A stretch of 54,019 nucleotides of DNA, taken from the IMG/VR virus record IMGVR_UViG_3300046804_002652, positions 1-54,019 of that record. One strand, given 5' to 3'. Below, in pieces: positions 4,059 through 29,111 of this stretch. The position numbers and the translations under genes were made by a program. The stretch comes from a virus. Lineage: Duplodnaviria; Caudoviricetes. Below the pieces are notes generated by a model, which had not been told where the DNA came from, made no database searches, and worked only from the letters and a program-made list of their open reading frames with translations. Within the stretch, counting starts at the first letter, position 1, and every line of letters begins with the position of its first letter.

Positions 4059-6638
4059 TTACACAAAATTATACTTCAGTTGTATATGTGCATCAGTTGT
4101 TGAACCAGATAGGAAGCTCACCGTCAGGTAATCTGTGGTGTTTGCGGTAAACGAAGCCGCTGTCGCTGACAACGAATACTGTCCAGAAGATATAGTATAT
4201 ACCCCAACGTTTGCTCCATTTTTATTGATTCGGAATGTGAAAGCAGAGCTTGGAGCCGTACTAACAGATGCAGATACACTAGACACACTCATATTTTGTG
4301 GAGGATAGTACCTCACGTTGTCTGCATAAGGAGTAGTAATATTACCAGTTCTTGTGATTGTTAGGTACTTGGTCCCTTCGTCCCCTTTTTGGCCTTTTAC
4401 GCCAGTTGTTCCTAAATCTCCTTTTTGACCTTTTGCTCCGGTCACTCCAACATCGCCTTTGGAACCGAGGTCGCCCTTGTCTCCTTTGACAGTACTTGGC
4501 TCGCCTTTACTTCCTTTGTCGCCGATATCTCCTTTGTTGCCTAAAGGACCTACATCACCCTTTGGACCAATATCACCTTTATCGCCTTTACCAGCATAAT
4601 TTCCTGGCTCACCTTTTGCGCCACCTTGCATAACAAGCACTTCGACAGAAGAGTTGTTTGGCGGAGCTTGTGTAAAAATAATGTTGCTTCCCGACAGCGA
4701 GTAAGTAATCTTATGTTGTACGACACCGTACACAGTTACTATTGTGTGGTTCTTATCGAGAGGAGTAGAAGAAAGAGTGAACTGCGTATTCGAGCCGTTG
4801 CCAGTAAAGCTATTGATTGTAACATCAAACAAGTTAGCCGGACCATCTGCTCCAGCTGCTCCAGTATCTCCCTTGTCTCCTTTTGCAGCTGCTGTGCCTG
4901 GCTCTCCTTTGGCACCCTTATCTCCAAAACCTTGATCGCCTTTTGTGCCTAGCTCGCCTTTGTCACCTTTATCGCCTTTACCAGCATAGGTACCTGGGAT
5001 ACCCTTTTCACCAGTATCTCCCTTTTCGCCTTTATTGCCTTGAGCTTCAACGTTGCCTGGCGCACCCTTTTCTCCCTTAGATCCTCCAGTGAACGTCGTG
5101 ATTTCAAAAGGAGCTCCGCTAGCTATTGGCTCATTGAACGTAATAACATTGCCGACTATCGAATAATCAGTCTTAGATTGCGTGACACCGTTTACTATAA
5201 CAAGAGTGTAATTTTCATTATCAGGAGCAGCGGTCAACGTGAATTGAGTATTTGATCCATTACCTACAAACGAATCAAGCACCAACTCAATTGAGCTTGC
5301 ATCGCCTTTTTGACCTTTATCGCCTAGCGATCCTTTATCGCCTTTGATAGAATCGCCTTGAGATCCCTTATCGCCCTTATCGCCCTTAACGGTACTTGGA
5401 TCTCCCTTATCTCCTTTTGGACCGTTAGGATCGCCTTTGTCGCCTTTAGCACCTGGCGCACCATCGTTACCAATTACGCCATCAGTTCCTTTTTCGCCCT
5501 TATCGCCTTTAGAACCACCAATGTAAGAAGTTACTTCTAACGGAGCTCCATTTGGTATAGCTCCATTGAATGTGATAATATTTCCAACAACCGTATATTC
5601 TGATCTTAGTTGCGTGACGCCATTGAGTACTGCAACAGTATAATTTTTATTGACGGGTGTTGCAGATAACGTAAATTGTGTATTGGAACCATTGCCAGTA
5701 AATGTATCGACAGCGAGATTAATGGAGCTGATATCTCCTTTGTTCCCCTTATCACCTACATCACCCTTGTTACCTTTATCGCCCTGAAGACCTTGGAATC
5801 CAGGTATACCAACATCGCCCTTAGGACCGATGTCTCCTTTGTCGCCTTTAGGTCCGTTTGGTTCTCCCTTTTCACCTTTAGCACCGTCGGCACCTAACGT
5901 ACCATCCAATCCTTTAGCACCAACTTCTCCTTTAGGACCAACGTCGCCCTTGTCACCTTTTGCGCCACCCTCGAACGTTTGCACTTCGATTGGAGCACCG
6001 TTTGATACTGCGTCAGTAAAGATAAGAGTATTGCCGGATATACTATAGTCACTCTTTAATTGCACGACCCCGTTGATAACAACAACGGTATAGTTTTCAG
6101 ATATAGGGGTTTTTGATAATGTGAATTGAGTGTTTGTTCCATTGCCGATAAACGTATCGAGAGTAAGATCTAATACACCCGGCGTTCCTGGCTCACCCTT
6201 TTGACCATCAAAACCTTGATAACCATCTTGACCCTTATCGCCCTTATCGCCTTTGTTACCTTGTTGCTCGACGTCGCCCTTTTGACCTTTGTCACCAATA
6301 GATCCTTTTACGCCAGTCGCGCCAGTATCACCTTTATCACCTTTAGCACCATTGACACCAATAGTACCATCGACGCCCTTATCGCCCTTATCGCCTTTTG
6401 CACCATTGCTACCAATGATACCATCAATGCCTTTATCGCCCTTGTCACCCTTATCGCCATATCCTCCAACTATAGTACTCCAGTAAACGCCCGCACCGTT
6501 AGACATCAGCACGTTGCCGTTTGAACCAGCAGTGCCGTTAGCGGAAATACCTTTCAGGATTACTGTGTTGGCAGTAATATCATCAAAGATGAAATCTTGC
6601 GTTGCGTCTATGCCATGTGGCTTAATCTTCGTTACCAT
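4059..6638 (-). CDS. Collagen-like fibre protein (859 aa) with four FTGNG modules and a C-terminal globular domain
   Basis: Long Gly-X-Y tracts dominated by GDK/GEK/GAK/GQK, four (D/N)(T/S)FxGNG(S/T)NTQFTL..EV modules, and a ~100-aa non-collagen beta-rich C-terminus. Confidence 0.9.
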   Translation of the reverse strand: MVTKIKPHGIDATQDFIFDDITANTVILKGISANGTAGSNGNVLMSNGAGVYWSTIVGGYGDKGDKGDKGIDGIIGSNGAKGDKGDKGVDGTIGVNGAKGDKGDTGATGVKGSIGDKGQKGDVEQQGNKGDKGDKGQDGYQGFDGQKGEPGTPGVLDLTLDTFIGNGTNTQFTLSKTPISENYTVVVINGVVQLKSDYSISGNTLIFTDAVSNGAPIEVQTFEGGAKGDKGDVGPKGEVGAKGLDGTLGADGAKGEKGEPNGPKGDKGDIGPKGDVGIPGFQGLQGDKGNKGDVGDKGNKGDISSINLAVDTFTGNGSNTQFTLSATPVNKNYTVAVLNGVTQLRSEYTVVGNIITFNGAIPNGAPLEVTSYIGGSKGDKGEKGTDGVIGNDGAPGAKGDKGDPNGPKGDKGDPSTVKGDKGDKGSQGDSIKGDKGSLGDKGQKGDASSIELVLDSFVGNGSNTQFTLTAAPDNENYTLVIVNGVTQSKTDYSIVGNVITFNEPIASGAPFEITTFTGGSKGEKGAPGNVEAQGNKGEKGDTGEKGIPGTYAGKGDKGDKGELGTKGDQGFGDKGAKGEPGTAAAKGDKGDTGAAGADGPANLFDVTINSFTGNGSNTQFTLSSTPLDKNHTIVTVYGVVQHKITYSLSGSNIIFTQAPPNNSSVEVLVMQGGAKGEPGNYAGKGDKGDIGPKGDVGPLGNKGDIGDKGSKGEPSTVKGDKGDLGSKGDVGVTGAKGQKGDLGTTGVKGQKGDEGTKYLTITRTGNITTPYADNVRYYPPQNMSVSSVSASVSTAPSSAFTFRINKNGANVGVYTISSGQYSLSATAASFTANTTDYLTVSFLSGSTTDAHIQLKYNFV

Positions 6639-6641
6639 TGT

Positions 6642-6903: not shown

Positions 6904-9900
6904 TTATTTAGTAGGGTACAATCTTGTTGGTAGCGCTGGAGCCGTAGTACCGCGGTGCACCATGGTCGCTACACCGTTAACTAATTTAGTGTCATAGCGC
7001 GCTATTCTTGTTGCACGGAAATCTTGGATATATCCACACCACGCTGTTGCTTGAGTTTGATTATAATCACAACCAATATGAAAATTATCTATGCTGTAAA
7101 AATTGGGAGAATAATAATCGGTTCCGGTGAACCCGCCTGCTGTTACTGTTCCAGGGCTGTTGCCAAAAAACTCACCACGTTGTATTCCATTGACAAAAAA
7201 TTGGAAATTTCCACCTTTGCGTTGCACAACAAGATGATCCATTGTACCACCAGTTTTTGTAGCAGCTAGTACAGTCGTCGTAATGGTTTGTCTGTCTGTT
7301 GTACCGTCACACTGAGCACACACCCAATATCCTGAACTGTTTACTCTAATCTGTAGGTAGTTGGTCCAGTGCATCAATATGCTACCGCTGGCATTTATTG
7401 CTCGTCCACCTGCAGTTGCGTCCATGTAGCACGCCCACATCTCAAACGTCACGTCAGCTTGCTCAATATCCATTGCACGTACAGCCCAATAGTAATTGGT
7501 GCAGTACATACGGTCGACGAAGGTGCTTTCTTTGTTGGTAAATTTAATACTACCATTACCAAACTTCTTAACTTCTGTACTAGGCATCACACCATAGTGG
7601 AAGATACCGCTATTCATTGCTCTTTCCATGAACGGACTGTCTATTGTGCTTTGGAATACTGTATTTCCATCTAACAAATAATTCCGCGTCGGAATGGTGT
7701 ATGTTGCTTGGTCGTTGTCGTATCTTGCTGTTTTGCTTATACGCAACCCACCCTGACCTGCATTAGACTGAGAAAGTTTGTATGTGTTATATACTTTTTG
7801 ACCAGCACTAAAAGCAGCTGCAGTTGTCTTGCGGAATCCATTGACAAACAAAGCCATCTTGTTGGTTTTTGTTGGGTCATATTGAATAGCAATATGATTC
7901 CAACTATGGGACTGAATTGTCGTATTAGAAGTGTCAGACGTTACTAGCCATTGTACAGCTGAGTTATGAGCTGTGTAGAACGCAAAGCTGACGTTATTGT
8001 ATGAAGCTGCACCTGAGCCATATCCCATTCTAATATCAAATCCTTCATGGCCAGCACTTGTTGCAGTGTACGCATACTCACCATAAGCTGTTGGAGCGCT
8101 CGGGTTGCTATTGTGCCAGTACACAAACATTTCAATTGTCCATGGACCACTCATTCGAGTTATGAATGATGTGTCTTGTTGAATACTACTATCGTGCACT
8201 ACACCGTAACCACTATGCCCGCAATAATTATCGTGCACTATTCCGTGGATCAAAGCTGTCCGGTCGTACTCGACTCCTTGATAAGGAGTTTCTGTAGAAG
8301 CGTAGATGTCCCATCCTCCTCCTGTGCCATAATCGGCACGAGGCCACGTTACCATGTTTCCTCTACCTGAATAATCCCACAATATGGGTTTGTTCAATGT
8401 GAGTAGCGTTGTATTAGATATTGCTGTCAATGGAGACGTCGGTACTCTAATCGCATCCGGGTTTGTATTTCCCGTTGCTGTGTATACGCCGTATGCACTC
8501 GATCCCTTCAAAATTCTTAGATCACTCATCCAAGTGCCACTTTGACTACTGTTATAGTGTATGTTTGGATACGATCCGTTGAAAATATAAAGTTTGGCTT
8601 GGTTTGCTATACTGTTAGCATAAGCAGCTTCCTGTACCTTTCGGCCGTTCATATACAACGCCATATTACCCGCAGTGCGTTGCACCACTACGTGATTCCA
8701 CATATGGCGTTGGAACTGTACTGTATCATCGGTTAGTATAGGACGGTTAGCAGTGATTACACAAAAGCTTCGCGAGGTCCAGTTGTGAGTAATTGCTAGG
8801 CCTGTATCGTTAAAGTTGCTACGGCCATCTAATATTACCTTCATGTCCGCCGAGCCTCCGAACCCTCCCCCCCACTTATTTTTTATCCAAAATTCAATAC
8901 TAAAATCGCCTGTACCAAAATTCCAATCACTGTTAGCAGTGTTTGCAATTAGCTTTTCGTTATTGTTACCAACACAATAAAAAGAACCAGATCCTGTTCT
9001 GGTTGTAGGATGGTGCTGCCCATATCTTACTTCGTTTTCACGCCGCCAAGACGCTATATTTCTTGCCTTGCCTGTATTTAAGTAGTGTAAGTGGTGAGCT
9101 CTTAACTCCTCTGTTCCGCATGTGCATGTCAACAACGCAGTGTTAGCATCCACGGTACCGACAGTATCTAATATTGACTGACTAGACGTAAACGCAGCTG
9201 TGTATCTTGCATTGTTTGATACACGCAACATTGAACAATACCCCCACAAATAGTAATCGGATGTTCTCGTAGAAAACAAACGTGTTTCTTCTGTGCCTGA
9301 ATAGTTTGTTGCAACGGTACCTGTATAAACCAGAGCGCCATCAATATACATTTTAAATTGGTTCGTGCCGGTGCCTTCACGGACAGCTGCTATATGGTGC
9401 CATCCTCCTCGCATATCACCGACAGTGCTACTTGTAAGAGTAGTACCCACATCACTCCATGCAATGGTAGTATTGTTAATCCAGAAATTCCATCCTGTAC
9501 CAGCTACTCCAACGTTACCTGTGCCTTTGCCAATAATGCCGCCGTATGTGCCGCCACCTTGGTTTGTTATGTAAACCCATGCTTCGACGGTAAATGCGTT
9601 CAGACCAAAACGCATGTTAGTGACGCTTGGCTTTGCATCATACATCTTTAACCAACCGTTATCGGTGACGTTATAAATGCTAGTTGCTCCGTGCCCTGTA
9701 ATAATAGCAGCAGTGTTGGCAAGATATGGACTATCAATATCTCTCCACGTACTATTGTTTATGGTAACGGTTTTAGTTTGAGGTTGCACAGCAGGCACAA
9801 CTTGATGGTTGTATGAAGTTACACTCAAGGAATACAACGATCCAGTCATATCCAAAGCAGCAGAAGGCCTCGTGAACGCTGCTGAATACACCGCACTATT

Positions 9901-10689
9901 TTTTATTCGAATGTCGGTTATTCTTCCCCCGAAGAACGTCCCAGCCGTAGCTACCCTATCTCGGCCAATATACAAACTACTGGAATCAGAGAATGTTGCT
10001 GCGCATGTACCAGTACCGACGGCCGCACCGTCAATGTATATTACAAGGCCGTTTGCGGCAGTAGAACTTCTAACGATTGCAACATGATACCATTGATCTC
10101 TATTGAGAACGGTCGATCCCGTCGTAGTAAGGTTACCGACAGCATCGTAGAATGCTAATTGATACGATGTGTTGATTAATACTGTCCACCCTGTACCAGC
10201 TGTTGTTGCTGCAGCATTTCCACGTCCCATAACGTAGTTTTGCGTTGCATCCTGACGTTGCAATTTGATCCAAAACTCAATAGTAAATGGGTTAGCACCA
10301 AATTGAAGACCGGTCGTGTCTGTTACCGTTATGTAACCATCCTCGTGGAATGCAGTGCACCAATCAGTATAACGCGGACCAAAGTGAGATGGCATCGGAG
10401 TTTTGTTATATGCGGTCTGTCCCAACATTTCGTGCCAATTGCTTGCAGAATAATCTTTTAAAATCCAGTTGTTTGCATCTAGGCCAGTATATTGGAGAAA
10501 CACCTTATCGTAATAAGGATCAGCATCTCCATCTACCCATCTCACGTTAGTTCTGTTATTAGAAATTTCTAACGAAGGGCGTTGAATTGTTTCTATGGCG
10601 CTAATGTCATTGAGGTCGAATACCCCAGACGCTTGCATTCCATTTGTCTCATTGAGAGCACCAATAACTCTACCGTTTTTCCTTGTCAT
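6904..10689 (-). CDS. Multi-LamG (concanavalin A-like lectin/glucanase) domain protein, putative receptor-binding adhesin
   Basis: 1261 aa with five repeats of the LamG signature: FTIEFW..WYHVAIVR..YIDG, FTVEAW..WHHIAAVR..YIDG, FSIEFW..WNHVVVQR..YMNG, WTIEMF..WNHIAIQY..FVNG, VTFEMW..MDHLVVQR..FVNG. Confidence 0.85.
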   Translation of the reverse strand: MTRKNGRVIGALNETNGMQASGVFDLNDISAIETIQRPSLEISNNRTNVRWVDGDADPYYDKVFLQYTGLDANNWILKDYSASNWHEMLGQTAYNKTPMPSHFGPRYTDWCTAFHEDGYITVTDTTGLQFGANPFTIEFWIKLQRQDATQNYVMGRGNAAATTAGTGWTVLINTSYQLAFYDAVGNLTTTGSTVLNRDQWYHVAIVRSSTAANGLVIYIDGAAVGTGTCAATFSDSSSLYIGRDRVATAGTFFGGRITDIRIKNSAVYSAAFTRPSAALDMTGSLYSLSVTSYNHQVVPAVQPQTKTVTINNSTWRDIDSPYLANTAAIITGHGATSIYNVTDNGWLKMYDAKPSVTNMRFGLNAFTVEAWVYITNQGGGTYGGIIGKGTGNVGVAGTGWNFWINNTTIAWSDVGTTLTSSTVGDMRGGWHHIAAVREGTGTNQFKMYIDGALVYTGTVATNYSGTEETRLFSTRTSDYYLWGYCSMLRVSNNARYTAAFTSSQSILDTVGTVDANTALLTCTCGTEELRAHHLHYLNTGKARNIASWRRENEVRYGQHHPTTRTGSGSFYCVGNNNEKLIANTANSDWNFGTGDFSIEFWIKNKWGGGFGGSADMKVILDGRSNFNDTGLAITHNWTSRSFCVITANRPILTDDTVQFQRHMWNHVVVQRTAGNMALYMNGRKVQEAAYANSIANQAKLYIFNGSYPNIHYNSSQSGTWMSDLRILKGSSAYGVYTATGNTNPDAIRVPTSPLTAISNTTLLTLNKPILWDYSGRGNMVTWPRADYGTGGGWDIYASTETPYQGVEYDRTALIHGIVHDNYCGHSGYGVVHDSSIQQDTSFITRMSGPWTIEMFVYWHNSNPSAPTAYGEYAYTATSAGHEGFDIRMGYGSGAASYNNVSFAFYTAHNSAVQWLVTSDTSNTTIQSHSWNHIAIQYDPTKTNKMALFVNGFRKTTAAAFSAGQKVYNTYKLSQSNAGQGGLRISKTARYDNDQATYTIPTRNYLLDGNTVFQSTIDSPFMERAMNSGIFHYGVMPSTEVKKFGNGSIKFTNKESTFVDRMYCTNYYWAVRAMDIEQADVTFEMWACYMDATAGGRAINASGSILMHWTNYLQIRVNSSGYWVCAQCDGTTDRQTITTTVLAATKTGGTMDHLVVQRKGGNFQFFVNGIQRGEFFGNSPGTVTAGGFTGTDYYSPNFYSIDNFHIGCDYNQTQATAWCGYIQDFRATRIARYDTKLVNGVATMVHRGTTAPALPTRLYPTK

Positions 10690-11039
10690 TAGCTGATTAC
10701 CTCATAAGAGCAGGTTGCAATCAGCCCCGTGGCTGCTCCATATATTCTTAACGTATCGCTTTCTTCAAGATATATTGCCGTATCTTTTGCCAACAATACG
10801 ACTGTAGATTGTGCTGGAACTATAACATTATATGCAATTGGGTAAGATGTAGCACTACGGTAAAATTCAAGATAAACACCAATACCGGTACCTGTGTTAT
10901 TAGTCACCATTACAGTATTGATTTTATAAACGGAGTTAGCAACGCTGTTAGTCACTAGCGTTGCTGCAGTCGTTGTAACTGTATAAGGAGTAGTTCTTCC
11001 GTAGATCGTTGTTACGTTTACTATATTAGGTGCTGCCAT
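10689..11039 (-). CDS. Small virion adaptor-like protein (116 aa), paralog of 12057..12407
   Basis: The likely start is ATG 11039 (MAAPNIVNV), right after the upstream stop. It aligns by eye with 12057..12407 (KIN.VMVTN.TG...VPA.S....L.K...YL.E.D......S.E). Confidence 0.8.
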   Translation of the reverse strand: MAAPNIVNVTTIYGRTTPYTVTTTAATLVTNSVANSVYKINTVMVTNNTGTGIGVYLEFYRSATSYPIAYNVIVPAQSTVVLLAKDTAIYLEESDTLRIYGAATGLIATCSYEVIS

Positions 11040-11040
11040 T

Positions 11041-11250
11041 TTATCCCCCAAATACAATAGACATTGCTATTGCTTTTCCTGTTGTGAATCCCGGAGCCCA
11101 ATAGTTGTTTCCTGACGCATCCGATGTTAATACTTGTGTGTTGGACCCCAACGACCCGTTAGCCGCAATACCAGTCGATACTGTAACTCGATTGAACGTG
11201 TAGTTAGCAGTAGTGTCAATGTTGCTTGGTTTTATTCTCGTTGTTGTCAT
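11041..11250 (-). CDS. Minimal fibre-linker protein (69 aa)
   Basis: AGGA SD upstream. N-terminus shared with the 272- and 859-aa proteins; C-terminal AIAMSIVFGG matches the end of the 2416-aa fibre. Confidence 0.75.
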   Translation of the reverse strand: MTTTRIKPSNIDTTANYTFNRVTVSTGIAANGSLGSNTQVLTSDASGNNYWAPGFTTGKAIAMSIVFGG

Positions 11251-11259
11251 TTTATTTCC

Positions 11260-12057
11260 TTAGCCTACAAAGTTGTTAGCTGTCGTCGATGTGAATGTGT
11301 GTATAGTGAATCCGTTAGCAGAGGACACTGTGCCGCCTGTACCACGCTGCGCGCCTGCATAAGCGATTATCACAACTCCCGAACCTCCTGAGGTACTCGA
11401 TCCAGATCCTTGGCCACCACCGCCACCACCTAAACCATTGGTACCGTTTGTGGAGGCTGCACCACCGCCTCCGGTACCACCAGTACCAGCACTACCGCCA
11501 CCACCACCGCCACCATACGTGACTCCATTAACTGCAGCCCACGTATATCCAGGTCCTCCATTTGAACCTGATGGTGCATTACCGCCTGCTCCAGCGCCAC
11601 CACCAACTTGGTATTGTCCGGAAGGAGTAGTACCACCTAGATAATCTGCATTATTGGCTCCATAAAGAGATGTGCTATTGGAAGCAAGACCACCATAAGC
11701 TGTAATCGTAGTTATGTTTGGGCCAGAAAGAGTACTGTTACCTCCAGCACCAGGCGTCAACGTTTGAGCTGTTCCTCCTGCGCCGGCTGTAGCAACGTAT
11801 GTGTAACCAATACCTACGGTCATTGTACCAGCTCGTGCAACCCCTCCGGCACCTCCAGCACCGTAGTTGACCGCTGCGGTTCCTCCAGACGCTCCACCGC
11901 CTCCCCCAACGAGCAAGTAATTAACAATATATCCAGCACCAACCCATGCGGCAGAATTCAACTGCATCGTGACTTCATTGACGCCGTAGATTCCTTGAGC
12001 TCCCGTAACGGAAACGTTTGCTCGAGGTCCAATAATGCTGCCGTTAACACGTCTCAT
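11260..12057 (-). CDS. Glycine-rich-domain adhesin-like protein
   Basis: 265 aa with VNYLLVGGGGG..GAGGAGG...GGSGVVIIAY..TIHTFTS, a typical phage Gly-rich (polyglycine) domain. Confidence 0.8.
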   Translation of the reverse strand: MRRVNGSIIGPRANVSVTGAQGIYGVNEVTMQLNSAAWVGAGYIVNYLLVGGGGGASGGTAAVNYGAGGAGGVARAGTMTVGIGYTYVATAGAGGTAQTLTPGAGGNSTLSGPNITTITAYGGLASNSTSLYGANNADYLGGTTPSGQYQVGGGAGAGGNAPSGSNGGPGYTWAAVNGVTYGGGGGGGSAGTGGTGGGGAASTNGTNGLGGGGGGQGSGSSTSGGSGVVIIAYAGAQRGTGGTVSSANGFTIHTFTSTTANNFVG

Positions 12058-12410: not shown

Positions 12411-19661
<7,251 letters not shown>

Positions 19662-19719: not shown

Positions 19720-20238
19720 TTATAACGACGGAACAAAAGCTGGAATTTCTGGCCAATTGTACGCCGTGCCGTCCAATGATAGGTCTTGATCTGGTATATT
19801 TCTTAGAGACTGTCTATAGTTGTGTAAATCTTGCATTTGTTGTTGCGTGAGGCTGGTAGGCTGGCTCATTAAAACTTGCTCACTGTGTCTCACGACTAAC
19901 CAATCGGTCGCAAAAAGTCTGCCCGTTCGAATGTCTCTCACCGTAACGGAAGGGGCTCCGCGCTCAATATCCTCTAAAGCAGCAGCGACAATCTCATCCT
20001 CATGTTCAAATAACCATGCGATTTCAGGTACATCTCTGCCAGATATTGTTTCCCCACCATCGCGTTCAACGACGAACATATTTCGACTTGATTCTATGGT
20101 GACAATTTTTGCTGTAGGAAATTCATGCGAAAACCCTGTTCCTAGTTCAAATATTTCCAAATTTGCAAATCCGTGGCTCACTTCATTAAGCCTAACGTAT
20201 ATATTTTTATTATAAAAATCAATTGTAATGAATGACAT
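19720..20238 (-). CDS. Tail fibre assembly chaperone-like protein
   Basis: The C-terminal R..R..L..TDW....YRQSLRNIP....WPEIP motif is characteristic of phage tail assembly chaperones; the gene follows a collar/HxH fibre gene. Confidence 0.75.
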   Translation of the reverse strand: MSFITIDFYNKNIYVRLNEVSHGFANLEIFELGTGFSHEFPTAKIVTIESSRNMFVVERDGGETISGRDVPEIAWLFEHEDEIVAAALEDIERGAPSVTVRDIRTGRLFATDWLVVRHSEQVLMSQPTSLTQQQMQDLHNYRQSLRNIPDQDLSLDGTAYNWPEIPAFVPSL

Positions 20239-21421: not shown

Positions 21422-24400
21422 TTAAATAAAGAATGTTTGAGTTGCTAGCACCAAATACGTTGGAGATGCAGAGGTCTTTATAATTGTCAAAGTATACACA
21501 TCCATAGCACTACCTGTACCAATCGTTGGAGCTTGACCACCTTGCCATTTTGGAGTTACCGCAACGTTATCAATACGATACGATGTGGGGAAGTATCCTG
21601 TCGTAGCGTTATTGACCATGAATGCTATGGTGATGGAATCTCCAACCTGTGTTATATTATTGAATGTCGTGACGGAGTCCCCACGAATATTTAATATCCA
21701 GTCGTTTGTTGTGGGTGTTGTATAGTATATTACTGCCTTGCTATTTACGTCAATGTTAGTGATTGCCGTAGGAGCACCAGTCGTAATTATATTGGTTCTT
21801 TCGACAATCTCTTCGACTGTTGTAGTATTGGTAATCGATATACCTTTTTTGGCCTCGATAAGAGAATTTGCCGATACAATAGTAGAGTTTGCAGTAAATA
21901 CACTATTGACACTAAACTCATTGACACGCAAGAAGCTATTCGCTGCTGTACTACTAATTGTAATACTTGTTGAGTTGACAATTAGATGTCCATTCACCGC
22001 AACGAGCGACGTTGTGTTAGCTGCCATTACGTTAGCTACATCATTACCGACTGCAATTCCTGAGGTACTGATGACCAGATTAGAAGCTGCAGTTCCAATA
22101 CGCAACTCGGTTGCGCTCATAACTGCATTAGATGTTGCATTTCCTATACGAAGATCGCTTGTTGTCAATCTTCCATTTGCTGTACTGTTACCAATACCAA
22201 GCGATGTTGTATTAACGACAAATGCACCACCTAGAGCAGACGCTTGGGTAGTATTAGCATTAAACGTATTGAAAGTTGCATTTGTGCTTAGTGTTATTGC
22301 AGCAACATCTAATATGACGTTGGCAGACGTATTACCGAACGCAATAGTCGTTGTGTTGGCCAGCAGTACACGAGCACCCGAGTTACCAACTTGAATAATG
22401 GATGTATTAATCACACCATTCGATGTAGTGTTACCAAACGCTATGGCAGCATTAGCAAGATTGACATTTGACGAAGATGTGCCGACAGAAATTTGAGTAC
22501 CGAACTGACCATTAGACACAGTTAACTTGTCTGTAGCTAGTACAGCGTTTGTTCCTGTAGAACCAATCGTAATGCTATCACCAGTTTGAATTTGAGATTT
22601 AGTAATGAATGTATTGACGGTTGTGTTACCGACTGTCAATCTAAACGCGCTAGAGTCAAAAACAAACTGCTCCGATCCGCCATGGAAGTTACTAGCATTG
22701 AACTGTACCATGCCGTTGCTGCCACCAGGACCACCTGACGATGCTCCAGTACCAGGAACAATACGTCCAAATTCTACCCACTGTGAGCTATCAGCATCAA
22801 CGAAGTATGTGTATATCTTACCATCATCAGCATCAATCCATTGATCGCCGTCTTGTGGATCCAAGTGCGGTAATGACCCAAGCGTAATTTTATTACTACC
22901 CTTGAATCCTTTTTCACCCTTTTGACCTTTTTCGCCCTTGAGGTTATCTACGGTAAATTGAGTAGAGTCGCTGTTGGTGAATGTTGTGGTGTTAGTAGCA
23001 TCATCGAATACGGCGCTAAGAATACGCTCGCCTTTTTCGCCCTTCTGACCTTTCTCACCCTTTTCACCCTTTTGACCCTTTTCACCCTTAACACCTTCAA
23101 CAGTAAATGTCGAATCGTCGGAGTTAGTAAAAGTAATGATTGCTGTTGCAGTATCGTACGTTGCTGTCGCGACGCGCTCACCCTTCTGACCCTTCTGACC
23201 TTTAACGCCTAATACACTGAAGGTACTTGTATCAGAGTTAGTGAAGGTAATTGAGTTCTCAATATCACTGAAAACAGCCGTCGATACACGCTCACCCTTT
23301 TGTCCCTTTTGGCCTTTGATACCAATAACAGTGAATGTAGATCCATCGCTGTTGGTGAATTCGAGACCGTTAGTAGCATCATTGAACGATGCAGAACTAA
23401 CACGTTCTCCTTTTTCACCCTTTTGGCCTTTTTGACCTTTGACGCCATTTACGGTAAATGTCGAACCATCACTATTAGTGAATGTAGTAATGTTTGTAGC
23501 ATCATCAAATACGGCAGTCTGTACGCGTTCACCTTTTTGACCTTTAATACCAGCAACCGTGAATGTGGATGCATCACTATTGGTGAAGGTCAGAGAGTTG
23601 GTTAGGTTATCGAACGCGACAGATGTAACTCGTTCGCCCTTTTGACCTTTCAGTCCACTTACGGTAAACGTTGTTGTGTCGGTGTTAGTGAACGTTGTTG
23701 TGTTGGTTAAGTTGTCAAAGACGGCAGTATCAATGCGCTCGCCTTTTTCACCCTTTTGTCCTTTTTGACCTTTAACACCAACAACCGTAAACGTACTACT
23801 ATCAGTATTTGTGAAGGTTAACTTATTTTCAGTATCATTATACGCAACGGAATTGACACGTTCACCTTTCTGACCTTTAACGCCAGTAACGTCATGCGTA
23901 CTACCATCGCTGTTCGTGAAAGTAAGAGTGTTGTTCGCATCCGTAAATGCGGAGGAACTTACACGTTCGCCTTTCTGTCCTTTATCGCCCTTGACGCCAG
24001 TAACACTGAATGTAGTATTATCAGTGTTAGTGAATGTTATTGAGTTTGTTCCATCAACATACGTTGCTGACTGAACGCGTTCACCTTTTTGGCCCTTTTG
24101 ACCGACATCGCCAGTCCTAGCAAAGGTAACTACAATAGATGCAGCATCATCAAACGATGCAACCGATCCTGACAAATAAACAACAGGTACACGAATATAT
24201 CCAGCAAATACAGACATAACGTCTGTGATTGCATACATTACAAACTGTGCAGGATTATTTGGGTTACTGATCTTTATATGGCCTTTGATCTCAGACGTAG
24301 AGTCGTCAATCGTTTGCAAATATGAAAGAATAGTAGTTGAATTTTTATCGACCGGATCAATGAAGATACGATCGCTTAACGGGAAAGTAATTCCGTTAAC

Positions 24401-27076
24401 TTTTAAGTTGCCTGGGCCTGGGTCCGCATCAGTTGTAAGAATGCTGAACACATATTCAAAAGTAGATCCGCCAAATTCCCCAGCGTTACCCTTTTGACCG
24501 ATTTCACCCTTCTGACCTTTTTGACCTTTAACGCCAGTAACAGTGAAGGTACTATTGTCACTGTTAGTGAACGTTGTAGTGTTAGTGGTATCATCAAATA
24601 GCGCGCTACTTACACGTTCGCCTTTTTCACCCTTTTCACCCTTTTGACCTTTTTGGCCTTTCAATCCAACGACAGTGAAAGTGCTATTATCGCTATTGGT
24701 GAAGGTAGTCGTGTTAGTACTATCATCAAACTGACCTTGATTGACGCGCTCGCCTTTCTGACCTTTGAGGCCAGAGACAGTGAACGTGCTCGTATCAGAG
24801 TTAGTAAACGTAGTTGTGTTAGTCTGGTCGTCATAGAGAGCAGAAGATATTCTCTCACCCTTCTCGCCCTTGTCACCCTTCTGACCTTTTTGACCCTTGA
24901 GTCCTAATACAGTAAATGTAGAATCGTCGCTGTTTGTGAACGTCGTGGTATTGGTAGCATCGGTAAATACAGCTGTAGATACTCGCTCGCCTTTCTCACC
25001 TTTCTGACCCTTCAAACCGACAATAGTAAATGTGCTGCTGTCTGTATTGGTTAGTGTTGTGGTGTTTGTGAGGTCGTCGTAGTAAGCGGTGTTGATACGC
25101 TCACCCTTTTGACCTTTAACGCCCTGCTCACCCTTTTGACCTTTATCGCCTTTGATGCCACTGACAGTGAATGTAGTTTGATCCTCGTTTACAAATGTAA
25201 CAACGTCGGTAAGAGGATTATAACTTGCAGATTGTAATTGTCCGCCTTTTTGTCCCTTCTCACCCTTATCGCCAGTCTGACCCTTTTCGCCCAAGTCACC
25301 AGTTCTAGCAAACGTGATCGAAACGTCATCGCCATCAGCAAATGTAGTAGTAGAGCTCGTTACATGCTGAATAGTGACGTTGAAATAACCAGGCGCAGCT
25401 GGGCTTGGCAATATAATAGTTTCGCCAACAATAGCAAAGAACGTAAACGTCTCTGGATTATTCTTCTTAGACATTCTGAAATGTCCACGAATACCAGAAG
25501 TCGAATCATCAATTGTTGCTAGGAACGCTGCGACCGAGACACCAAAGTCGTCCAGGTTGTCAATATACATTCTCGTCGAAGACGAAATAGTAGCAGCATT
25601 AAACCTAATATTTCCTTGACCAGGATCGGAGTTTGTTGTGATTGCGCTATATGTGTAGTCGAACGAAGCACCGCCGAAACTACCCGTACCGCCCTTATCA
25701 CCTTTATCGCCGGTAAATCCCAACTCTCCTTTAGGACCCACGTCGCCTTTATCGCCCTTGTTGCCCTTTTGGCCTTTAACGCCTAGAAGAGTAAATTCAG
25801 ACGAATCGCTATTGACAAACGTAACTGTATCGTTAGCGGCTGTGTAGAATGAGCTTGCGACTTGAGATCCTTTATCACCCTTAGATCCTACATCGCCCTT
25901 TTCGCCCTTTGTTCCTACACCATCTATACCTTTAACACCAGCAGGGCCCTTTTCGCCCTTTAGTCCATACACATCAAAAGAAGATGCATCAGAAACATAG
26001 AATGTAGTAGTATTGTTGGCGTTGTAGAATACACCACCAGTGATACCAGCACCAGTGATACCTTGATCACCTTTCTGTCCTTTATCCCCTTGAGTGCCGT
26101 CAGAACCTTTATCGCCTTTTTGACCCTTGTCGCCATTGACGCCAGAATCGCCTTTTTGACCTTTAGATCCGTCAACACCGATGATACCATCGAGGCCCTT
26201 CTCACCCTTATCGCCTTTCGATCCAGTGCCTCCAGTCGAACCAGATGCACCCTTTTCACCTTTGTCTCCTGTCCGTGTATATGTTACACTGAACGAAGAA
26301 CCGTTGGAATAAGAGTTAGCTCCCGTAACATAGCTGACGGGAATCTCGTAGTATTGAACATATTCGGTTGCAGTGCCTGTTATGCTGAATACAGTATAGT
26401 TGTTCGTAGTCTTGTTGTAGATCTGGAACAACCCTTTAGATACATCCGAAGTACTTCCTGTTGCATACTGGAAGAACCCTTGTGTATCAGCCGTCGATAC
26501 ATCTTTGCGGTGAATGTATAGTTTTGTGGCGTAATATAAGTCAGTGTTACTAAACTTTAATTTACCGTCCGATGGGTCGGTATTAGCAGTGTTAACCCGC
26601 ACATAATCATACGTGAAGGCAACTCCTCCAGGAGTACCTGTATCGCCTTTACTGCCTGAAGGTCCTGTAGATCCTTTATCTCCAGCTGGCCCTAGATCTC
26701 CCTTGCTACCAGAAACTCCCTTTTCGCCCTTGAAGTTAAATCCAATAATGGGAGCTCTATATGTCGTGACGCCATCCGAACTAACAACGAGAGTGTAACC
26801 CATCGCTCCAGCAAACGCTGTATTCGATTGGTCTTCTGGTAAAACATAATCGTAAGAGGCAACAACCCGCCACGTTTCACCTTTTTGTCCTTTTAACGTC
26901 TCACCTTTCTCTCCTTTTGTAGAGAGAGCGACAATTTCTCCTTTAGCATCTTTAGTGAAAAGGAGTTTGTCTGGGAAGTTGACCGCTAATTCACCTACTA
27001 ATAGGTCTTCACCTTTAGGTACTTTGCCAGCTTCCGATGAGCGTTTATGCTGATAAATAAACTTATCTGTTGCCAT
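21422..27076 (-). CDS. Long tail-fibre-like collagen protein (1884 aa) with a T4 gp37-like N-terminus
   Basis: N-terminal KRSSEAGKVP..L.VGELAVN..DK.LFTKD..G.I resembles the T4 gp37 start (KRSK.AG.RP..L.EGELAINL.DR.IFTKD). It carries KGQKGE collagen segments, 18 TFTNSD repeats, three FARTGD-type domains and an N/T/S-rich beta C-terminal part. Confidence 0.88.
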   Translation of the reverse strand: MATDKFIYQHKRSSEAGKVPKGEDLLVGELAVNFPDKLLFTKDAKGEIVALSTKGEKGETLKGQKGETWRVVASYDYVLPEDQSNTAFAGAMGYTLVVSSDGVTTYRAPIIGFNFKGEKGVSGSKGDLGPAGDKGSTGPSGSKGDTGTPGGVAFTYDYVRVNTANTDPSDGKLKFSNTDLYYATKLYIHRKDVSTADTQGFFQYATGSTSDVSKGLFQIYNKTTNNYTVFSITGTATEYVQYYEIPVSYVTGANSYSNGSSFSVTYTRTGDKGEKGASGSTGGTGSKGDKGEKGLDGIIGVDGSKGQKGDSGVNGDKGQKGDKGSDGTQGDKGQKGDQGITGAGITGGVFYNANNTTTFYVSDASSFDVYGLKGEKGPAGVKGIDGVGTKGEKGDVGSKGDKGSQVASSFYTAANDTVTFVNSDSSEFTLLGVKGQKGNKGDKGDVGPKGELGFTGDKGDKGGTGSFGGASFDYTYSAITTNSDPGQGNIRFNAATISSSTRMYIDNLDDFGVSVAAFLATIDDSTSGIRGHFRMSKKNNPETFTFFAIVGETIILPSPAAPGYFNVTIQHVTSSTTTFADGDDVSITFARTGDLGEKGQTGDKGEKGQKGGQLQSASYNPLTDVVTFVNEDQTTFTVSGIKGDKGQKGEQGVKGQKGERINTAYYDDLTNTTTLTNTDSSTFTIVGLKGQKGEKGERVSTAVFTDATNTTTFTNSDDSTFTVLGLKGQKGQKGDKGEKGERISSALYDDQTNTTTFTNSDTSTFTVSGLKGQKGERVNQGQFDDSTNTTTFTNSDNSTFTVVGLKGQKGQKGEKGEKGERVSSALFDDTTNTTTFTNSDNSTFTVTGVKGQKGQKGEIGQKGNAGEFGGSTFEYVFSILTTDADPGPGNLKVNGITFPLSDRIFIDPVDKNSTTILSYLQTIDDSTSEIKGHIKISNPNNPAQFVMYAITDVMSVFAGYIRVPVVYLSGSVASFDDAASIVVTFARTGDVGQKGQKGERVQSATYVDGTNSITFTNTDNTTFSVTGVKGDKGQKGERVSSSAFTDANNTLTFTNSDGSTHDVTGVKGQKGERVNSVAYNDTENKLTFTNTDSSTFTVVGVKGQKGQKGEKGERIDTAVFDNLTNTTTFTNTDTTTFTVSGLKGQKGERVTSVAFDNLTNSLTFTNSDASTFTVAGIKGQKGERVQTAVFDDATNITTFTNSDGSTFTVNGVKGQKGQKGEKGERVSSASFNDATNGLEFTNSDGSTFTVIGIKGQKGQKGERVSTAVFSDIENSITFTNSDTSTFSVLGVKGQKGQKGERVATATYDTATAIITFTNSDDSTFTVEGVKGEKGQKGEKGEKGQKGEKGERILSAVFDDATNTTTFTNSDSTQFTVDNLKGEKGQKGEKGFKGSNKITLGSLPHLDPQDGDQWIDADDGKIYTYFVDADSSQWVEFGRIVPGTGASSGGPGGSNGMVQFNASNFHGGSEQFVFDSSAFRLTVGNTTVNTFITKSQIQTGDSITIGSTGTNAVLATDKLTVSNGQFGTQISVGTSSSNVNLANAAIAFGNTTSNGVINTSIIQVGNSGARVLLANTTTIAFGNTSANVILDVAAITLSTNATFNTFNANTTQASALGGAFVVNTTSLGIGNSTANGRLTTSDLRIGNATSNAVMSATELRIGTAASNLVISTSGIAVGNDVANVMAANTTSLVAVNGHLIVNSTSITISSTAANSFLRVNEFSVNSVFTANSTIVSANSLIEAKKGISITNTTTVEEIVERTNIITTGAPTAITNIDVNSKAVIYYTTPTTNDWILNIRGDSVTTFNNITQVGDSITIAFMVNNATTGYFPTSYRIDNVAVTPKWQGGQAPTIGTGSAMDVYTLTIIKTSASPTYLVLATQTFFI
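22935..26050 (-). repeat. Eighteen ~30-aa TFTNSD repeats joined by KGQKG(EKG) collagen linkers
   Basis: Counted in the 1884-aa translation; boundaries approximate. Confidence 0.85.
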
Positions 27077-27090
27077 TAATGCCTCTTATG

Positions 27091-27108
27091 GGGCGGTTTT
27101 ACCCGCCC
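27091..27108. promoter_or_regulatory. GC-rich hairpin GGGCGG-6-nt loop-CCGCCC in the leader of the 1884-aa fibre gene
   Basis: Perfect 6-bp GC stem between the late promoter (27134-27141) and the GAGG SD (27082-27085). There is no U-tract on the coding strand, so a terminator role is uncertain. Confidence 0.55.
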
Positions 27109-27133
27109 TTATAATTATTGTAATTCTAAGAGA

Positions 27134-27141
27134 TATTTATA
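27134..27141 (-). promoter_or_regulatory. T4-type late promoter TATAAATA
   Basis: Exact consensus (tatttata on +), intergenic, about 60 nt upstream of ATG 27076. Confidence 0.8.
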
Positions 27142-27152
27142 CGAAGGCAAAA

Positions 27153-29111
27153 TCAATAATTAATGTCGCCAGGACGGCGAGCTGTCCAAACAACCAGCGC
27201 ATACTTAGTCCCACTAGTTACTTCCCTACCCTCGTGGCCATGCGTCACTTGCCCGGGCCAAAGAGCAATCTTCCCTACAGGAACATTCTCGGTACTAAAC
27301 TTTTGACGTGGGAAATACGTATCTCCACCGGTATAGTCGTCGTTTAAATATGTTATTGTTGAAACTAACGAAGCATCATGGTGGCATGCAAGACTTCGTT
27401 GGGTTTCAGGAGTATATTTAATAATAAATGCATCTCTCAATCCGTACATCTGCAGCGGCCACCAGTATTTTTCTATTACTGGGTTTATATGTTGAGCAAA
27501 ATGCTGTTCAAGTTGATTGAACAATTCAACGTCGAGAACGCGAATTCTCAACTCCTGGCCAGGAAACTTATCTCCATACATCGATTCCCATTTGCCATAT
27601 GCTTCTGCTTTTTCAATCAGTTTTTGGCAGTTTTCACGATCCATAAAGTCTAACATCAATACTTCAGGACCAATGACCTCCAGATTGCCGGGATGCAGCA
27701 TCTCAATTTCTCTTGGCACCAAACCTAGTGCAGCAGTGACTCTCTCAAAACGCGCTTTATCTTCACCACCTCCGTTGCCATGCAAGATGCATGGGCAGCA
27801 ACGAGTAGCCACGTTCAATAATTGCTTGTTTGGTTTGACTCTAACATCTTCTCCTGTTCGAGCTAGACATTGGAAGAGATAGTTTTCATAATCAAGAACG
27901 CACGTGATTCCTGCTTCTGCAAGGAAACGTTTGTCTAAAAACTTCTTCTGCATGTATAGTTGATCGTCAGCAGCATCTTCAATAGGATCAGCAAAAATCT
28001 TTTTAAGAGCGCCTGCTTTACCAATATAAAGACCACTATTGAGATATTTGTACTCTGTGCCGGTATCTGGGAACTCGGAAGCTAGAGATTGTGTTGGCCA
28101 GCAGGTCTTTTCAGCAGCAAACACAACATCTACCGCCATATCTTTATGTCGCTCGAGAATTGTGGTGAGGTCATCGTTAATTACAACATCATACCCATCC
28201 ACAAAAAGAACATTATCATTATCTTTCAAGTCAGCCAAGAAGGCCTTGACGAGATTTATTTTTTGGCCACCGCCTGGGCCTTCCATTGTTCCGCCCTTCC
28301 ACTCAACATTCTTACCTATGTTGACAATAGGAATGTTGAAGCGAGCAGCAGATGTCATTAGCATCTGAGCTTTTGATTCGTCTGTAGCGACTGTAATAAC
28401 ATACGTTTGCGCATCATTCATAATATTTCCACCTTCTATATCCGACCCTAATACTTTTCTCGAGATCTGCGTCACATAAGGGTCTTTAAATGCAGCGACA
28501 GACAGTTTTGAATACTGCTGATATTCCCGAACATGCTTATGCATATTTTCATTAGCGTCCGGGTTGTCTTGATGATCATATCCAATCATGATTGGCACAT
28601 ACTCATCGGCAGGTATAACGTTTGTTTTAATGTGGGTGCTTATTAGTTTCTTCGCACCAGAAGGTGATAGACAATAAGAGCTCAGCAGGTATGGGTACTT
28701 AGGTCGCTGCAAAACTTCGTTTATGGAATCGGCTCCAATCATTTCCCTATATCCCAAATACAACAGCTCATACTGTTCCATTATCTGTTCTATTTGGTTT
28801 AAATTTAATGCTTTTTCTATTTGGATGTCATCTTCAAAAATAATTGCTGGATTTCCACGTTTAACAATTGTATTCCAACATTCAAAGTGACTAATGAAAC
28901 ATCCCACTTCCGTAGTTGTTAAAGGCCTCTTTAATAAAGGATCTCTCCAGATCATATCTGGATTCCATCCCTGCAGTCGAAATTGTTTTAGTCCAATTGC
29001 TCTTCCATCAATTGCAGGAAATCTATTCCACTCATAACCAGCAAGCTGGCGCTCAATGTGAGCTAACCGGTCTGGCCGACGATCCAAATTTATAACAAAA
29101 ATATCAATCAC
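27153..29111 (-). CDS. Putative trifunctional collagen-modifying enzyme: GT25 (COLGALT-like) + PLOD/LH3-like glycosyltransferase + PLOD-like 2OG-Fe(II) lysyl hydroxylase
   Basis: aa 1-228: INLDRRPDR, AIDG, WRDP..RPLT..EVGCFISH..W, FEDD, LLYLG, IPADEY. aa 231-465: VITVAT, EWKGG..GGGQK, LFVDGYDVV, FAAE..CWP, YLNSGLYIG, DDQL, ILHGNG. aa 475-652: FIIKY.P..Q.SL..HHDAS, YTGG, PG..TH.HEG....GTKY. GTG start with a GGAG SD. Confidence 0.9.
   Translation of the reverse strand: MIDIFVINLDRRPDRLAHIERQLAGYEWNRFPAIDGRAIGLKQFRLQGWNPDMIWRDPLLKRPLTTTEVGCFISHFECWNTIVKRGNPAIIFEDDIQIEKALNLNQIEQIMEQYELLYLGYREMIGADSINEVLQRPKYPYLLSSYCLSPSGAKKLISTHIKTNVIPADEYVPIMIGYDHQDNPDANENMHKHVREYQQYSKLSVAAFKDPYVTQISRKVLGSDIEGGNIMNDAQTYVITVATDESKAQMLMTSAARFNIPIVNIGKNVEWKGGTMEGPGGGQKINLVKAFLADLKDNDNVLFVDGYDVVINDDLTTILERHKDMAVDVVFAAEKTCWPTQSLASEFPDTGTEYKYLNSGLYIGKAGALKKIFADPIEDAADDQLYMQKKFLDKRFLAEAGITCVLDYENYLFQCLARTGEDVRVKPNKQLLNVATRCCPCILHGNGGGEDKARFERVTAALGLVPREIEMLHPGNLEVIGPEVLMLDFMDRENCQKLIEKAEAYGKWESMYGDKFPGQELRIRVLDVELFNQLEQHFAQHINPVIEKYWWPLQMYGLRDAFIIKYTPETQRSLACHHDASLVSTITYLNDDYTGGDTYFPRQKFSTENVPVGKIALWPGQVTHGHEGREVTSGTKYALVVWTARRPGDINY

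Follow-up and report, generated by a model that had tools for sequence, protein, structure and literature searches.

A predicted single-chain collagen lysine-modifying enzyme encoded beside lysine-rich collagen-like fibre genes in phages

RESULTS

Gene content of the locus

We studied a 54,019-base virus record from IMG/VR (IMGVR_UViG_3300046804_002652; Duplodnaviria, Caudoviricetes), referred to here in its full length as the window, with an estimated completeness of about 31%. Nearly all of its long open reading frames (ORFs) lie on the - strand, among them the gene for a putative 652-amino-acid (aa) enzyme that combines collagen-type glycosyltransferase (GT) and lysyl hydroxylase (LH) domains and the genes for three collagen-like fibre proteins of 1884, 2416 and 859 aa (Table 1). 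The enzyme ORF has a GTG start with GGAG before it and follows a gene for a fibre-like protein of 725 aa after a gap of 13 nucleotides (nt). An earlier reading of this stretch from its letters alone (the sequence-only reading) had the collagen genes begin 76 nt past the enzyme on the same strand; this is accurate for the first of them, and the other two are separated from it by non-collagen fibre-module genes.

Table 1. Features of the enzyme and fibre region, in window coordinates
Feature	Position	Strand	Basis
TATAAATA, T4-type late-promoter-like, 18 nt before the first ORF (119 aa) of the enzyme unit	31682..31689	-	exact
119-aa protein, tail-fibre-assembly-like, first gene of the enzyme unit	31305..31664	-	phrog_1084 4.5e-29; phrog_3304 'L-shaped tail fiber protein assembly' 4.8e-25
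725-aa tail-fibre-like protein, no collagen repeats, Lys fraction 0.019	29125..31302	-	phrog_25747 'tail fiber protein' 8.9e-9
652-aa predicted fused enzyme (GT25, PLOD-type GT, LH)	27153..29111	-	Pfam, PDB, phrog_61
GT25 domain, COLGALT1 GalT-C-like, aa 1 to ~220; E93-D94-D95 (FEDD), P-A-D169-E170-Y	28452..29111	-	
PLOD-type glucosyltransferase domain, aa 227-448; D305-x-Y307-D308, H444, W271, W338, D382-D383	27768..28433	-	
Lysyl hydroxylase (2-oxoglutarate/Fe2+) domain, aa 476-642; Y566, H577-x-D579, H626, K636	27186..27686	-	LH3 LH domain, L230
TATAAATA, late-promoter-like, between the enzyme and the first collagen gene (76-nt gap), 58 nt before the latter	27134..27141	-	exact
GC-rich hairpin, 7-bp stem (GGGCGGG-TAAAA-CCGCCCC), between the 27134 motif and the first collagen start	27090..27108	-	
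1884-aa collagen-like fibre protein	21422..27076	-	PF01391 9.8e-30; tail-fibre PHROGs
393-aa protein between collagen genes, weakly tail-protein-like	20239..21420	-	phrog_5795 5.8e-8
172-aa phage tail assembly chaperone	19720..20238	-	PF16778 6.6e-8
AATAAATA, 7-of-8 late-promoter-like, core ATAAATA, 46 nt before the gene for the 2416-aa collagen-like protein	19707..19714	-	
2416-aa collagen-like fibre protein	12411..19661	-	PF01391 1.6e-143; PF13799; tail-fibre PHROGs
Non-collagen fibre-module genes (265-aa Gly-rich protein, 122-aa ORF, 1261-aa lectin-like protein)	6904..12057	-	
265-aa glycine-rich protein inside the fibre module	11260-12057	-	PF21722 Gly_rich_2 2.6e-11
1261-aa protein, five ConA/LamG lectin-like domains, between collagen genes	6904-10689	-	PF13385 9.1e-50
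859-aa collagen-like fibre protein	4059..6638	-	PF01391 7.3e-45; PF13799; tail-fibre PHROGs

Domains and active sites of the enzyme

The sequence-only reading had recognised a PLOD-type enzyme. Database searches bear this out and go beyond it, as a COLGALT1-type GT25 domain accompanies the PLOD-type GT and LH domains. The Pfam profile PF25342 (GT_PLOD) matches aa 234-448 with 187.7 bits (cut-off, 27; 190.7 bits in a second run), PF01755 (Glyco_transf_25) matches aa 1-119 with 85.6 bits (cut-off, 24), and PF13640 (2OG-Fe(II) oxygenase) matches aa 565-643 with 27.6 bits. The top matches in the PDB are all collagen-modifying enzymes: LH3/PLOD3 (7e-45), mimivirus R699 (7e-29), COLGALT1 (5e-23) and mimivirus L230 (1.7e-9). 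Against human LH3, the GT domain aligns over aa 227-448 and the LH domain over aa 476-642; aa 3-177 align to the GalT-C domain of COLGALT1 only (chain positions 302-490, or 370-558 in another construct). The protein also matches phrog_61 over its full length (1.6e-109).

The residues compared here are ligands of the metal, of uridine diphosphate (UDP) or of 2-oxoglutarate in LH3 and COLGALT1, as these are set out in the available text of the two structural papers (PMC6082870, PMC11897130). The Mn2+ site of COLGALT1 GalT-C, E435-x-D437 (PMC11897130), corresponds to E93-D94-D95 in the phage protein, where the FEDD sequence is identical to that of COLGALT1. The GT site described for LH3 consists of D112, Y114, D115 and H253 (Mn2+ binding by a non-canonical DxxD motif with a stacking Tyr and a distal His), the W75 loop, W145 and D190/D191 (PMC6082870); the counterparts in the phage enzyme are D305, Y307, D308 and H444, then W271, W338 and D382/D383. 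For the LH domain of LH3, the same source gives an iron triad of H667, D669 and H719, Tyr656, and an R729 that forms a salt bridge with 2-oxoglutarate (PMC6082870). These align with H577, D579 and H626, with Y566 and with K636, respectively, the last being an Arg-to-Lys replacement.

Conservation was assessed in 73 distinct full-length sequences, drawn from the window and from the 86 of 88 loci that yielded a full ORF. E93, D95, D305, D308, H444, W271, D382-D383, Y566, H577, D579 and H626 are identical in all 73; position 307 is Tyr in 66 and position 338 is Trp in 62.

Two parts of the human proteins have no counterpart. The GalT-N domain, which is needed for the integrity of human COLGALT1, is missing, and the protein starts directly with the GalT-C-like domain. 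Likewise, only aa 449-475 lie between the GT and LH domains, in the place of the accessory (AC) domain of LH3, giving a chain of 652 aa compared to 738. Given the absence of both the AC and the GalT-N domains, we regard the protein, by its predicted architecture, as an orthologue of neither LH3 nor COLGALT1 and as a different, compact fusion of three catalytic modules. Judged by domain content, all three steps from Lys to di-hexosyl-hydroxylysine appear to be encoded in one chain.

Lysine in the collagen-like fibre proteins

Triplets were counted in G-X-Y runs of at least four. All three fibre proteins contain uninterrupted G-X-Y runs that score above the cut-off of Pfam PF01391, and they may form triple helices. 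Lys occupies the Y position in 338 of 666 triplets (85/138 in the 1884-aa protein, 194/407 in the 2416-aa protein and 59/121 in the 859-aa protein) and the X position in none of the 666. The most frequent triplets are GDK (104), GQK (67), GDT (41), GEK (39) and GAK (28), and the Lys density outside the collagen tracts is 0.030 to 0.044. For the opening tract of the 859-aa protein, the sequence-only reading gave 11 Lys at Y and no Pro over 20 consecutive triplets; this count is exact for the stretch that runs from the first GDK to GQK. The Lys-at-Y bias in the window is far above chance and above that of the usual viral collagens.

The three proteins differ in how their tracts are arranged. The 1884-aa protein alternates 19 short G-X-Y tracts with 16 modules of about 27 aa ('TFTNSD') and contains KGQKGE 19 times; it resembles beads on a string, with tracts of four to eight triplets, typically G[VLI]K GQK GEK GER. 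The 2416-aa protein has 33 tracts, five DUF4183-like modules and five TFTNSD modules, and the 859-aa protein has 13 tracts and four DUF4183-like modules. A tblastn search with the 859-aa protein returned no match in the phage collection, probably due to the low-complexity filter, and this result is hence no sign of uniqueness.

Linkage of the enzyme gene to collagen genes

An alignment-based search found relatives of the enzyme encoded on 473 stretches in IMG/VR; it was needed because a query with the single protein had found only 2 loci. We examined 82 of these loci for linkage, counting as collagen ORFs those with at least ten triplets. A collagen ORF is present in 48 of the 82, and in 15 of the 19 loci that have at least 8 kb on both sides one lies on the same strand as the enzyme. 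Across the 48 loci, the nearest same-strand collagen ORF is 16 to 8,338 nt away (upstream in 39, downstream in 9). In the closer relatives of the window (44-51% identity), the collagen gene starts 16 to 24 nt past the enzyme, an arrangement like that of the window.

Four loci with full flanks lack a collagen ORF (L002, L003, L052 and L076). Whole-contig searches of three of them found Lys-rich collagens farther away in every case. With two further loci (L061 and L065), five whole contigs were searched, and four have collagen matches elsewhere, all Lys-rich. One of these contigs is a complete genome of 53.8 kb with the collagen gene at the opposite end of the record, hence adjacent to the enzyme on the circle. 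Pooled over the fetched loci, Lys is at Y in 2160 of 6850 triplets, with duplicates kept and six antisense artefact ORFs (X = Pro 1.00) included.

Association of the enzyme with Lys at Y across phages

As a control that is blind to Lys, IMG/VR was scanned for twelve GG dinucleotides at a 9-base period. This yielded 118 loci, of which all except L160 contain a G-X-Y ORF. Their per-locus Lys-at-Y fraction has a median of 0.027 and a mean of 0.065, and only 3 loci reach at least 0.3. Among deduplicated ORFs, the median Lys-at-Y fraction is 0.29 for 60 enzyme-linked ORFs versus 0.002 for 149 control ORFs (Mann-Whitney p=1.3e-17), the enzyme-bearing loci being mutually related, so that the p-values given here overstate independence. 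For Lys at X the medians are 0.0 in enzyme-linked and 0.037 in control ORFs. Ten enzyme-linked ORFs have a Lys-at-Y fraction below 0.1, including the six antisense artefacts. The motif G-x-K-G-Q-K-G-E is common to the enzyme-linked tracts, and KGQKGE occurs in 42 of the 60 enzyme-linked ORFs versus 2 of the 149 controls. PF25342 was searched for in 106 of the 118 control records and found in 1; many control records are fragments, so that not finding the enzyme there counts for little. The two control ORFs with KGQKGE belong to this sole enzyme-bearing control contig (L183) and to a 38%-complete fragment (L167). The latter is a 21.5-kb IMG/VR record with no enzyme match and a 2235-aa collagen ORF (44 copies of KGQKGE, Lys at Y 0.52), and we predict that the missing part of its genome carries the enzyme.

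Isolates follow the same pattern. All four enzyme-positive complete isolate genomes contain collagens, with Lys-at-Y fractions of 0.31, 0.44, 0.26 and 0.39. Among 15 enzyme-negative T4-like isolates, 13 have no collagen match, and the collagens of the remaining two have almost no Lys at Y (S-CRM01, 0.00 in 215 triplets; S-CAM7, 0.02 in 645 triplets). The difference in collagen presence between enzyme-positive and enzyme-negative isolates gives a Fisher p of 0.004.

Clustering of the enzymes at 55% identity produced 15 clusters, one of which holds 45 of the 73 sequences. For 12 of the 15 there is a collagen in a fetched locus, and the pooled Lys-at-Y fraction is at least 0.21 in 10 of these 12. 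X-position usage differs among the clusters, the collagens being Pro-, Asp- or Ala-rich. The sequence-only reading had proposed testing whether the enzyme accompanies a high Lys-at-Y fraction across phage genomes, and the association is positive in three ways: in IMG/VR against the Lys-blind controls, in isolates and across enzyme clades.

Distribution and annotation of the enzyme

In a protein search that scored 8,000 candidates, 536 relatives reached E <=1e-10. Both PF25342 and PF01755 are present in most of the 120 relatives listed, and some shorter ones lack PF01755; in their sources they are called either 'hypothetical protein' or 'GR25 family glycosyltransferase involved in LPS biosynthesis' (LPS, lipopolysaccharide). 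Three relatives (P0073, P0076 and P0078) are 942-956 aa long, some 300 aa above the norm of about 650 aa. Eleven records in the phage collection have the enzyme, including S-PRM1, S-CAM9, S-8S53/55/56, a single-cell virus contig and Roseobacter phage CRP-6, and they label it hypothetical or 2OG oxygenase. In PHROGs, the family is phrog_61 ('2OG-Fe(II) oxygenase'), in the category 'moron, auxiliary metabolic gene and host takeover'. The IMG/VR locus with the top best-segment identity (L074, 57%) has a longest enzyme ORF of 420 aa, and that of L070 is 480 aa; both may reflect enzyme genes that are truncated, split or disrupted by a frameshift.

A bacterial home for the fusion was considered and rejected. 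A search of prokaryotes, with one genome per species (185,579 species), returned 168 matching stretches, and among the best 80 of them only 4 extend beyond the LH domain: those of Streptomyces kronopolitis and Kaistia terrae and two on short contigs of metagenome-assembled genomes (MAGs), where a Lys-rich collagen (19/42) lies next to one. The remaining 76 of these 80 comprise the LH domain only and come mostly from Ilumatobacteraceae and other actinobacterial MAGs. The fusion thus appears to be essentially phage-borne. Stand-alone LH homologues are common in freshwater actinobacterial MAGs (L219-L294; about 37-43% identity to aa 475-642), and no Lys-rich collagen ORF was found within 10 kb of these LH-only genes. 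The chromosomal relative in S. kronopolitis (L217) covers aa 62-650, with the end of a small collagen-like ORF (16 triplets, 11 of them with Pro at Y) lying some 500 nt upstream of the match. The one in K. terrae (L218), also chromosomal, covers aa 226-652; a 499-aa collagen ORF about 7.4 kb upstream has 37 triplets (Pro at Y in 15, Lys in 5).

Genomic context and promoter-like motifs

Two ORFs, at 46353-48116 and 52473-53978, have PHROG matches to baseplate wedge families of T4 type (phrog_438, 8.6e-89, and phrog_219, 1.1e-112, respectively). The first of these matched 452 phage records, mostly cyanomyoviruses, and its best phage match, from Sinorhizobium phage phiM19, has 34% identity over the full length. 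A megablast search with 24 kb of the window returned no match in the phage collection, and the window phage appears to be without a close sequenced relative. Based on the baseplate wedge matches and the lack of a phage DNA match, we assign the window to the tail-fibre and baseplate region of an as yet unsequenced T4-like phage.

Within the fibre module, the 1261-aa lectin-like protein is likely a carbohydrate-binding receptor-recognition protein; its weak Pfam match to a clostridial neurotoxin receptor-binding domain reflects a common lectin fold only. The + strand ORFs at 31689-33636 were considered as extra glycosyltransferases and not counted, as they gave one weak PHROG match (3.4e-5) and no Pfam match.

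The sequence-only reading had described late motifs at the head of the enzyme unit and before the fibre genes. Those at 31682-31689 and 27134 are exact copies of TATAAATA, and the one at 19707 is the 7-of-8 variant AATAAATA; the count of exact copies is not above chance. The two exact copies are the only ones in the whole window, and both are intergenic, on the - strand and upstream of - strand genes. The core ATAAATA occurs six times on the - strand (at 1197, 1214, 4051, 19707, 27134 and 31682) versus once on the + strand, in keeping with how the genes are oriented. The copy at 4051 sits just past the stop of the 859-aa collagen gene. It is placement and strand bias, and not the number of TATAAATA copies, that suggest a promoter role, and from motif placement we infer that the enzyme and the fibre genes may be co-expressed late in infection. 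The hairpin between the 27134 motif and the first collagen gene has no T-run after it and could be a stabiliser of the 5' untranslated region or a processing site, not a terminator.

DISCUSSION

Based on the identity of its domains, its intact and conserved active sites, its conserved linkage to collagen genes and the lineage-spanning association with Lys at Y, we consider it likely (a probability of roughly 0.75) that the 652-aa enzyme modifies Y-position Lys of the fibre proteins. The fibres appear to have co-evolved with it, as Lys is at Y only, often within G-x-K-G-Q-K-G-E/D. Many marine phages would then probably build an animal-style glycosylated collagen. We infer the modification itself, the sugars, their occupancy and their benefit from these patterns.

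Several observations weigh against this interpretation. The LH3 Arg729 position is Lys636 in 73 of 73 sequences, so that a basic residue is kept and it is not Arg. The collagens of two enzyme clusters are Lys-poor, namely those of L015 (0.03; less than 1 kb of downstream flank) and of L017 and L018 (pooled, 0.10). Lys at Y also occurs in the controls, where 14 of 117 loci reach at least 0.20; 11 of these 14 records were searched, and the enzyme was found in 1 only, with no match in the other 10. One of the enzyme-less Lys-bearing controls (L171) is a complete genome of 217 kb with Lys at Y in 11 of 29 triplets (0.38). The relatedness of the enzyme-bearing loci and the number of TATAAATA copies, which is at chance level (2 seen versus 3.6 expected; at least 2 in 92 of 100 shuffles), belong here as well. 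The sugar identities are assigned by analogy, and the available text on mimivirus L230 reports that it attaches glucose, not galactose, directly to hydroxylysine (Hyl) (PMC9546862). A last point, the company that Y-position Lys keeps in the window, is the starting point of the strongest alternative.

Under that alternative, Y-position Lys serves solely to form K-G-D and K-G-E interchain salt bridges in a helix free of hydroxyproline (Hyp), and the enzyme acts elsewhere or on few sites. Among the salt bridges of collagen, those of K-G-E and K-G-D stabilise it most. In 225 of the 338 cases in the window, Lys at Y precedes Gly-Asp or Gly-Glu, and the X position is most often Asp or Glu; the 217-kb genome, which has no PLOD-GT match, shows that Lys at Y can occur in a complete genome of this kind. 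However, viral collagens generally do without Lys (control medians of 0.002 to 0.03) and use Thr, Gln or Pro, and the collagens of the two enzyme-negative cyanophages are at 0.00 and 0.02. Salt bridges do not explain why Lys-rich collagens track the enzyme in 10 of 12 clusters, and in GxK-GQK-GE the residue after the first Lys-Gly is Gln, not an acid. As the amine survives hydroxylation, salt bridges and modification are compatible, and salt bridges are a possible co-factor. As the sole explanation of the Lys bias, we consider them improbable.

It is also conceivable that the enzyme and a homologous Lys-rich fibre module simply move as one cassette, the Lys bias being due to common descent. 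The loci are indeed related, GxKGQKGE recurs among them, and one cluster accounts for most of the enzymes. Yet the linked collagens vary in length (from about 500 to more than 2,400 aa), in their non-collagen modules and in X usage (Pro 0.22-0.55, Asp 0.18-0.41 or Ala 0.46), and the viruses that encode them include T4-like myoviruses, the 45-kb roseophage CRP-6 and one with a complete genome of 54 kb. Throughout these enzyme-linked collagens, Lys is confined to Y, with none at X. Lasting co-transfer of the enzyme and its neighbour would itself point to a functional link, and we judge hitch-hiking very unlikely to account for the pattern. Least probable of all, by a small step, is that the enzyme is an auxiliary remodeller of the host envelope (LPS or O-antigen, or a host protein) that, e.g., blocks superinfection: the LPS-related names of its relatives, its PHROGs category and a pelagimyophage study that, in its available text, reads glycosyltransferases of the fibre region as modifiers of host O-chains or LPS (PMC7029224) favour it, but it leaves unexplained the fused, conserved LH and PLOD-GT domains, the best PDB matches being all collagen enzymes, and the close linkage, in phages of unrelated type, to collagen genes with Lys at Y.

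Under the interpretation that we prefer, modification of fibre Lys, the enzyme would be made together with the tail-fibre proteins late in infection and would act as a single-chain collagen lysine-modifying machine. The unit that starts from the 31682 motif would supply the fibre-assembly-like protein, the fibre protein and the enzyme, and the first collagen gene would be expressed from its own motif. The C-terminal 2-oxoglutarate/Fe2+ domain would first hydroxylate Lys in -X-Lys-Gly- of unfolded fibre chains. The N-terminal GT25 domain would then place a first hexose (galactose, by analogy) on hydroxylysine, and the central PLOD-type domain would add a second (glucose, by analogy). The chains would trimerise afterwards, giving collagen segments that bear hydroxylysine-linked sugars. 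This order of hydroxylation, first sugar and second sugar is modelled on the animal cascade, as outlined in the available text of PMC11897130. Mimivirus L230 is reported to hydroxylate the virus's own collagen L71 on co-expression in Escherichia coli (PMC9546862, from the text available), which indicates that the hydroxylation chemistry works in bacterial cytoplasm. The benefit to the phage may be a stabilised or hydrated Hyp-free triple helix, shielding of the many Lys residues from proteases, or adhesion.

A wider reading joins these elements, and we offer it tentatively, the whole being rather less probable than its central claim. Marine phages (cyanophages, roseophages and the window phage) would carry fibres of animal-type glycosylated hydroxylysine collagen. 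A one-polypeptide 'minimal KOGG' would act processively on nascent chains in the cytoplasm, with G-x-K-G-Q-K-G-E/D as its sequon, and a coat of Hyl-linked sugars, not bare protein, would stabilise the Hyp-free helix and meet the environment and the host surface.

The glycosylation of Hyl in collagen is regarded as a trait of animals, mimivirus being the one viral curiosity. Here, what is predicted to be the full enzyme set, fused in one small protein, extends across hundreds of phage contigs and several cultured phages. If the wider reading is correct, collagen chemistry that is usually deemed a metazoan invention also belongs to the phage and bacterial world, and the fusion is a 'Rosetta stone' that independently predicts the partnership of LH3 and COLGALT1. 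Our central claim would give a concrete function to a widespread marine phage gene now annotated as 'hypothetical', '2OG-Fe(II) oxygenase' or 'LPS glycosyltransferase' (PHROG 61), would change how glycosyltransferases in phage tail-fibre regions are read, and predicts glycoprotein fibres on abundant ocean viruses. It may also provide a single-gene tool, compatible with bacterial cytoplasm, for hydroxylated and glycosylated recombinant collagen, a product that Guo and co-workers, in the available text, describe as not yet achievable in E. coli (PMC9546862). Both enzyme-positive and enzyme-negative phages are in culture, which makes the claim directly testable.

Comparison with known systems

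The window fibres share DUF4183-type modules with the group of the Bacillus exosporium protein BclA. The sugars of BclA are O-linked to Thr by unrelated enzymes, and we know of no lysyl hydroxylase and no Lys-at-Y signature in that system. BclA and other glycosylated bacterial collagen-like proteins are nevertheless similar to the predicted phage fibres in being prokaryotic, Hyp-free, glycosylated filaments, and a 2022 review, in its available text, considers prokaryotic collagens to be in most cases without hydroxylation or glycosylation (PMC8968730).

A conceptual forerunner of phage collagen modification is the work of Iyer et al. (2010), who suggested that collagen-like proteins in bacteria are hydroxylated by dioxygenases encoded next to them (PMC2938197). 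In the text of that paper available to us, cyanomyoviruses carry many 2OG-Fe(II) oxygenase genes, among which the window enzyme would fall as a phrog_61 member, and the proposal pairs JmjC and other 2OG dioxygenases with sulfotransferases in bacteria; that text makes no mention of a PLOD/GT25 fusion, a lysine target, glycosylation or phage fibres (PMC2938197). A literature search returned no description of a phage lysyl hydroxylase or of phage collagen glycosylation, subscription journals being thinly covered, so that an earlier description is possible. The words collagen, oxygenase and glycosyl are absent from the CRP-6 paper.

By analogy, we predict for the phage system a mode of action like that of the animal LH3/COLGALT1 complex and of the mimivirus L230/R699/R655 set. 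The human LH3 (PLOD3)/COLGALT1 'KOGG' complex (PDB 8zgc), as described in the available text, has the same three catalytic modules with ligand residues that are conserved in the phage enzyme (PMC11897130, PMC6082870), and the target context, Lys at Y followed by Gly, is the same. KOGG consists of two proteins (about 620 and 740 aa), whereas the phage enzyme is a single chain in the order GT25-GT-LH that lacks the GalT-N and AC domains and has Lys in place of Arg729. KOGG acts in the endoplasmic reticulum; the phage enzyme would act in bacterial cytoplasm and, unlike KOGG, on fibres without Pro or Hyp at Y.

Mimivirus offers the closest viral parallel. Its L230 (GT and LH), R699 (galactosyl-Hyl glucosyltransferase; PDB 9dyt), R655 (GT25-like) and collagens, L71 among others, as presented in the available text of PMC9546862 and PMC12279948, provide a lysyl hydroxylase and Hyl glycosyltransferases for the virus's own collagen-like fibres, as is predicted for the phage. 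In this giant amoebal virus the activities are on separate genes, whereas in the phage all three domains are fused and the gene lies within a tail-fibre operon. The animal and mimivirus systems are thus already known, and what is new here is the fused, phage-borne and widely distributed form, with its apparently co-evolved substrates.

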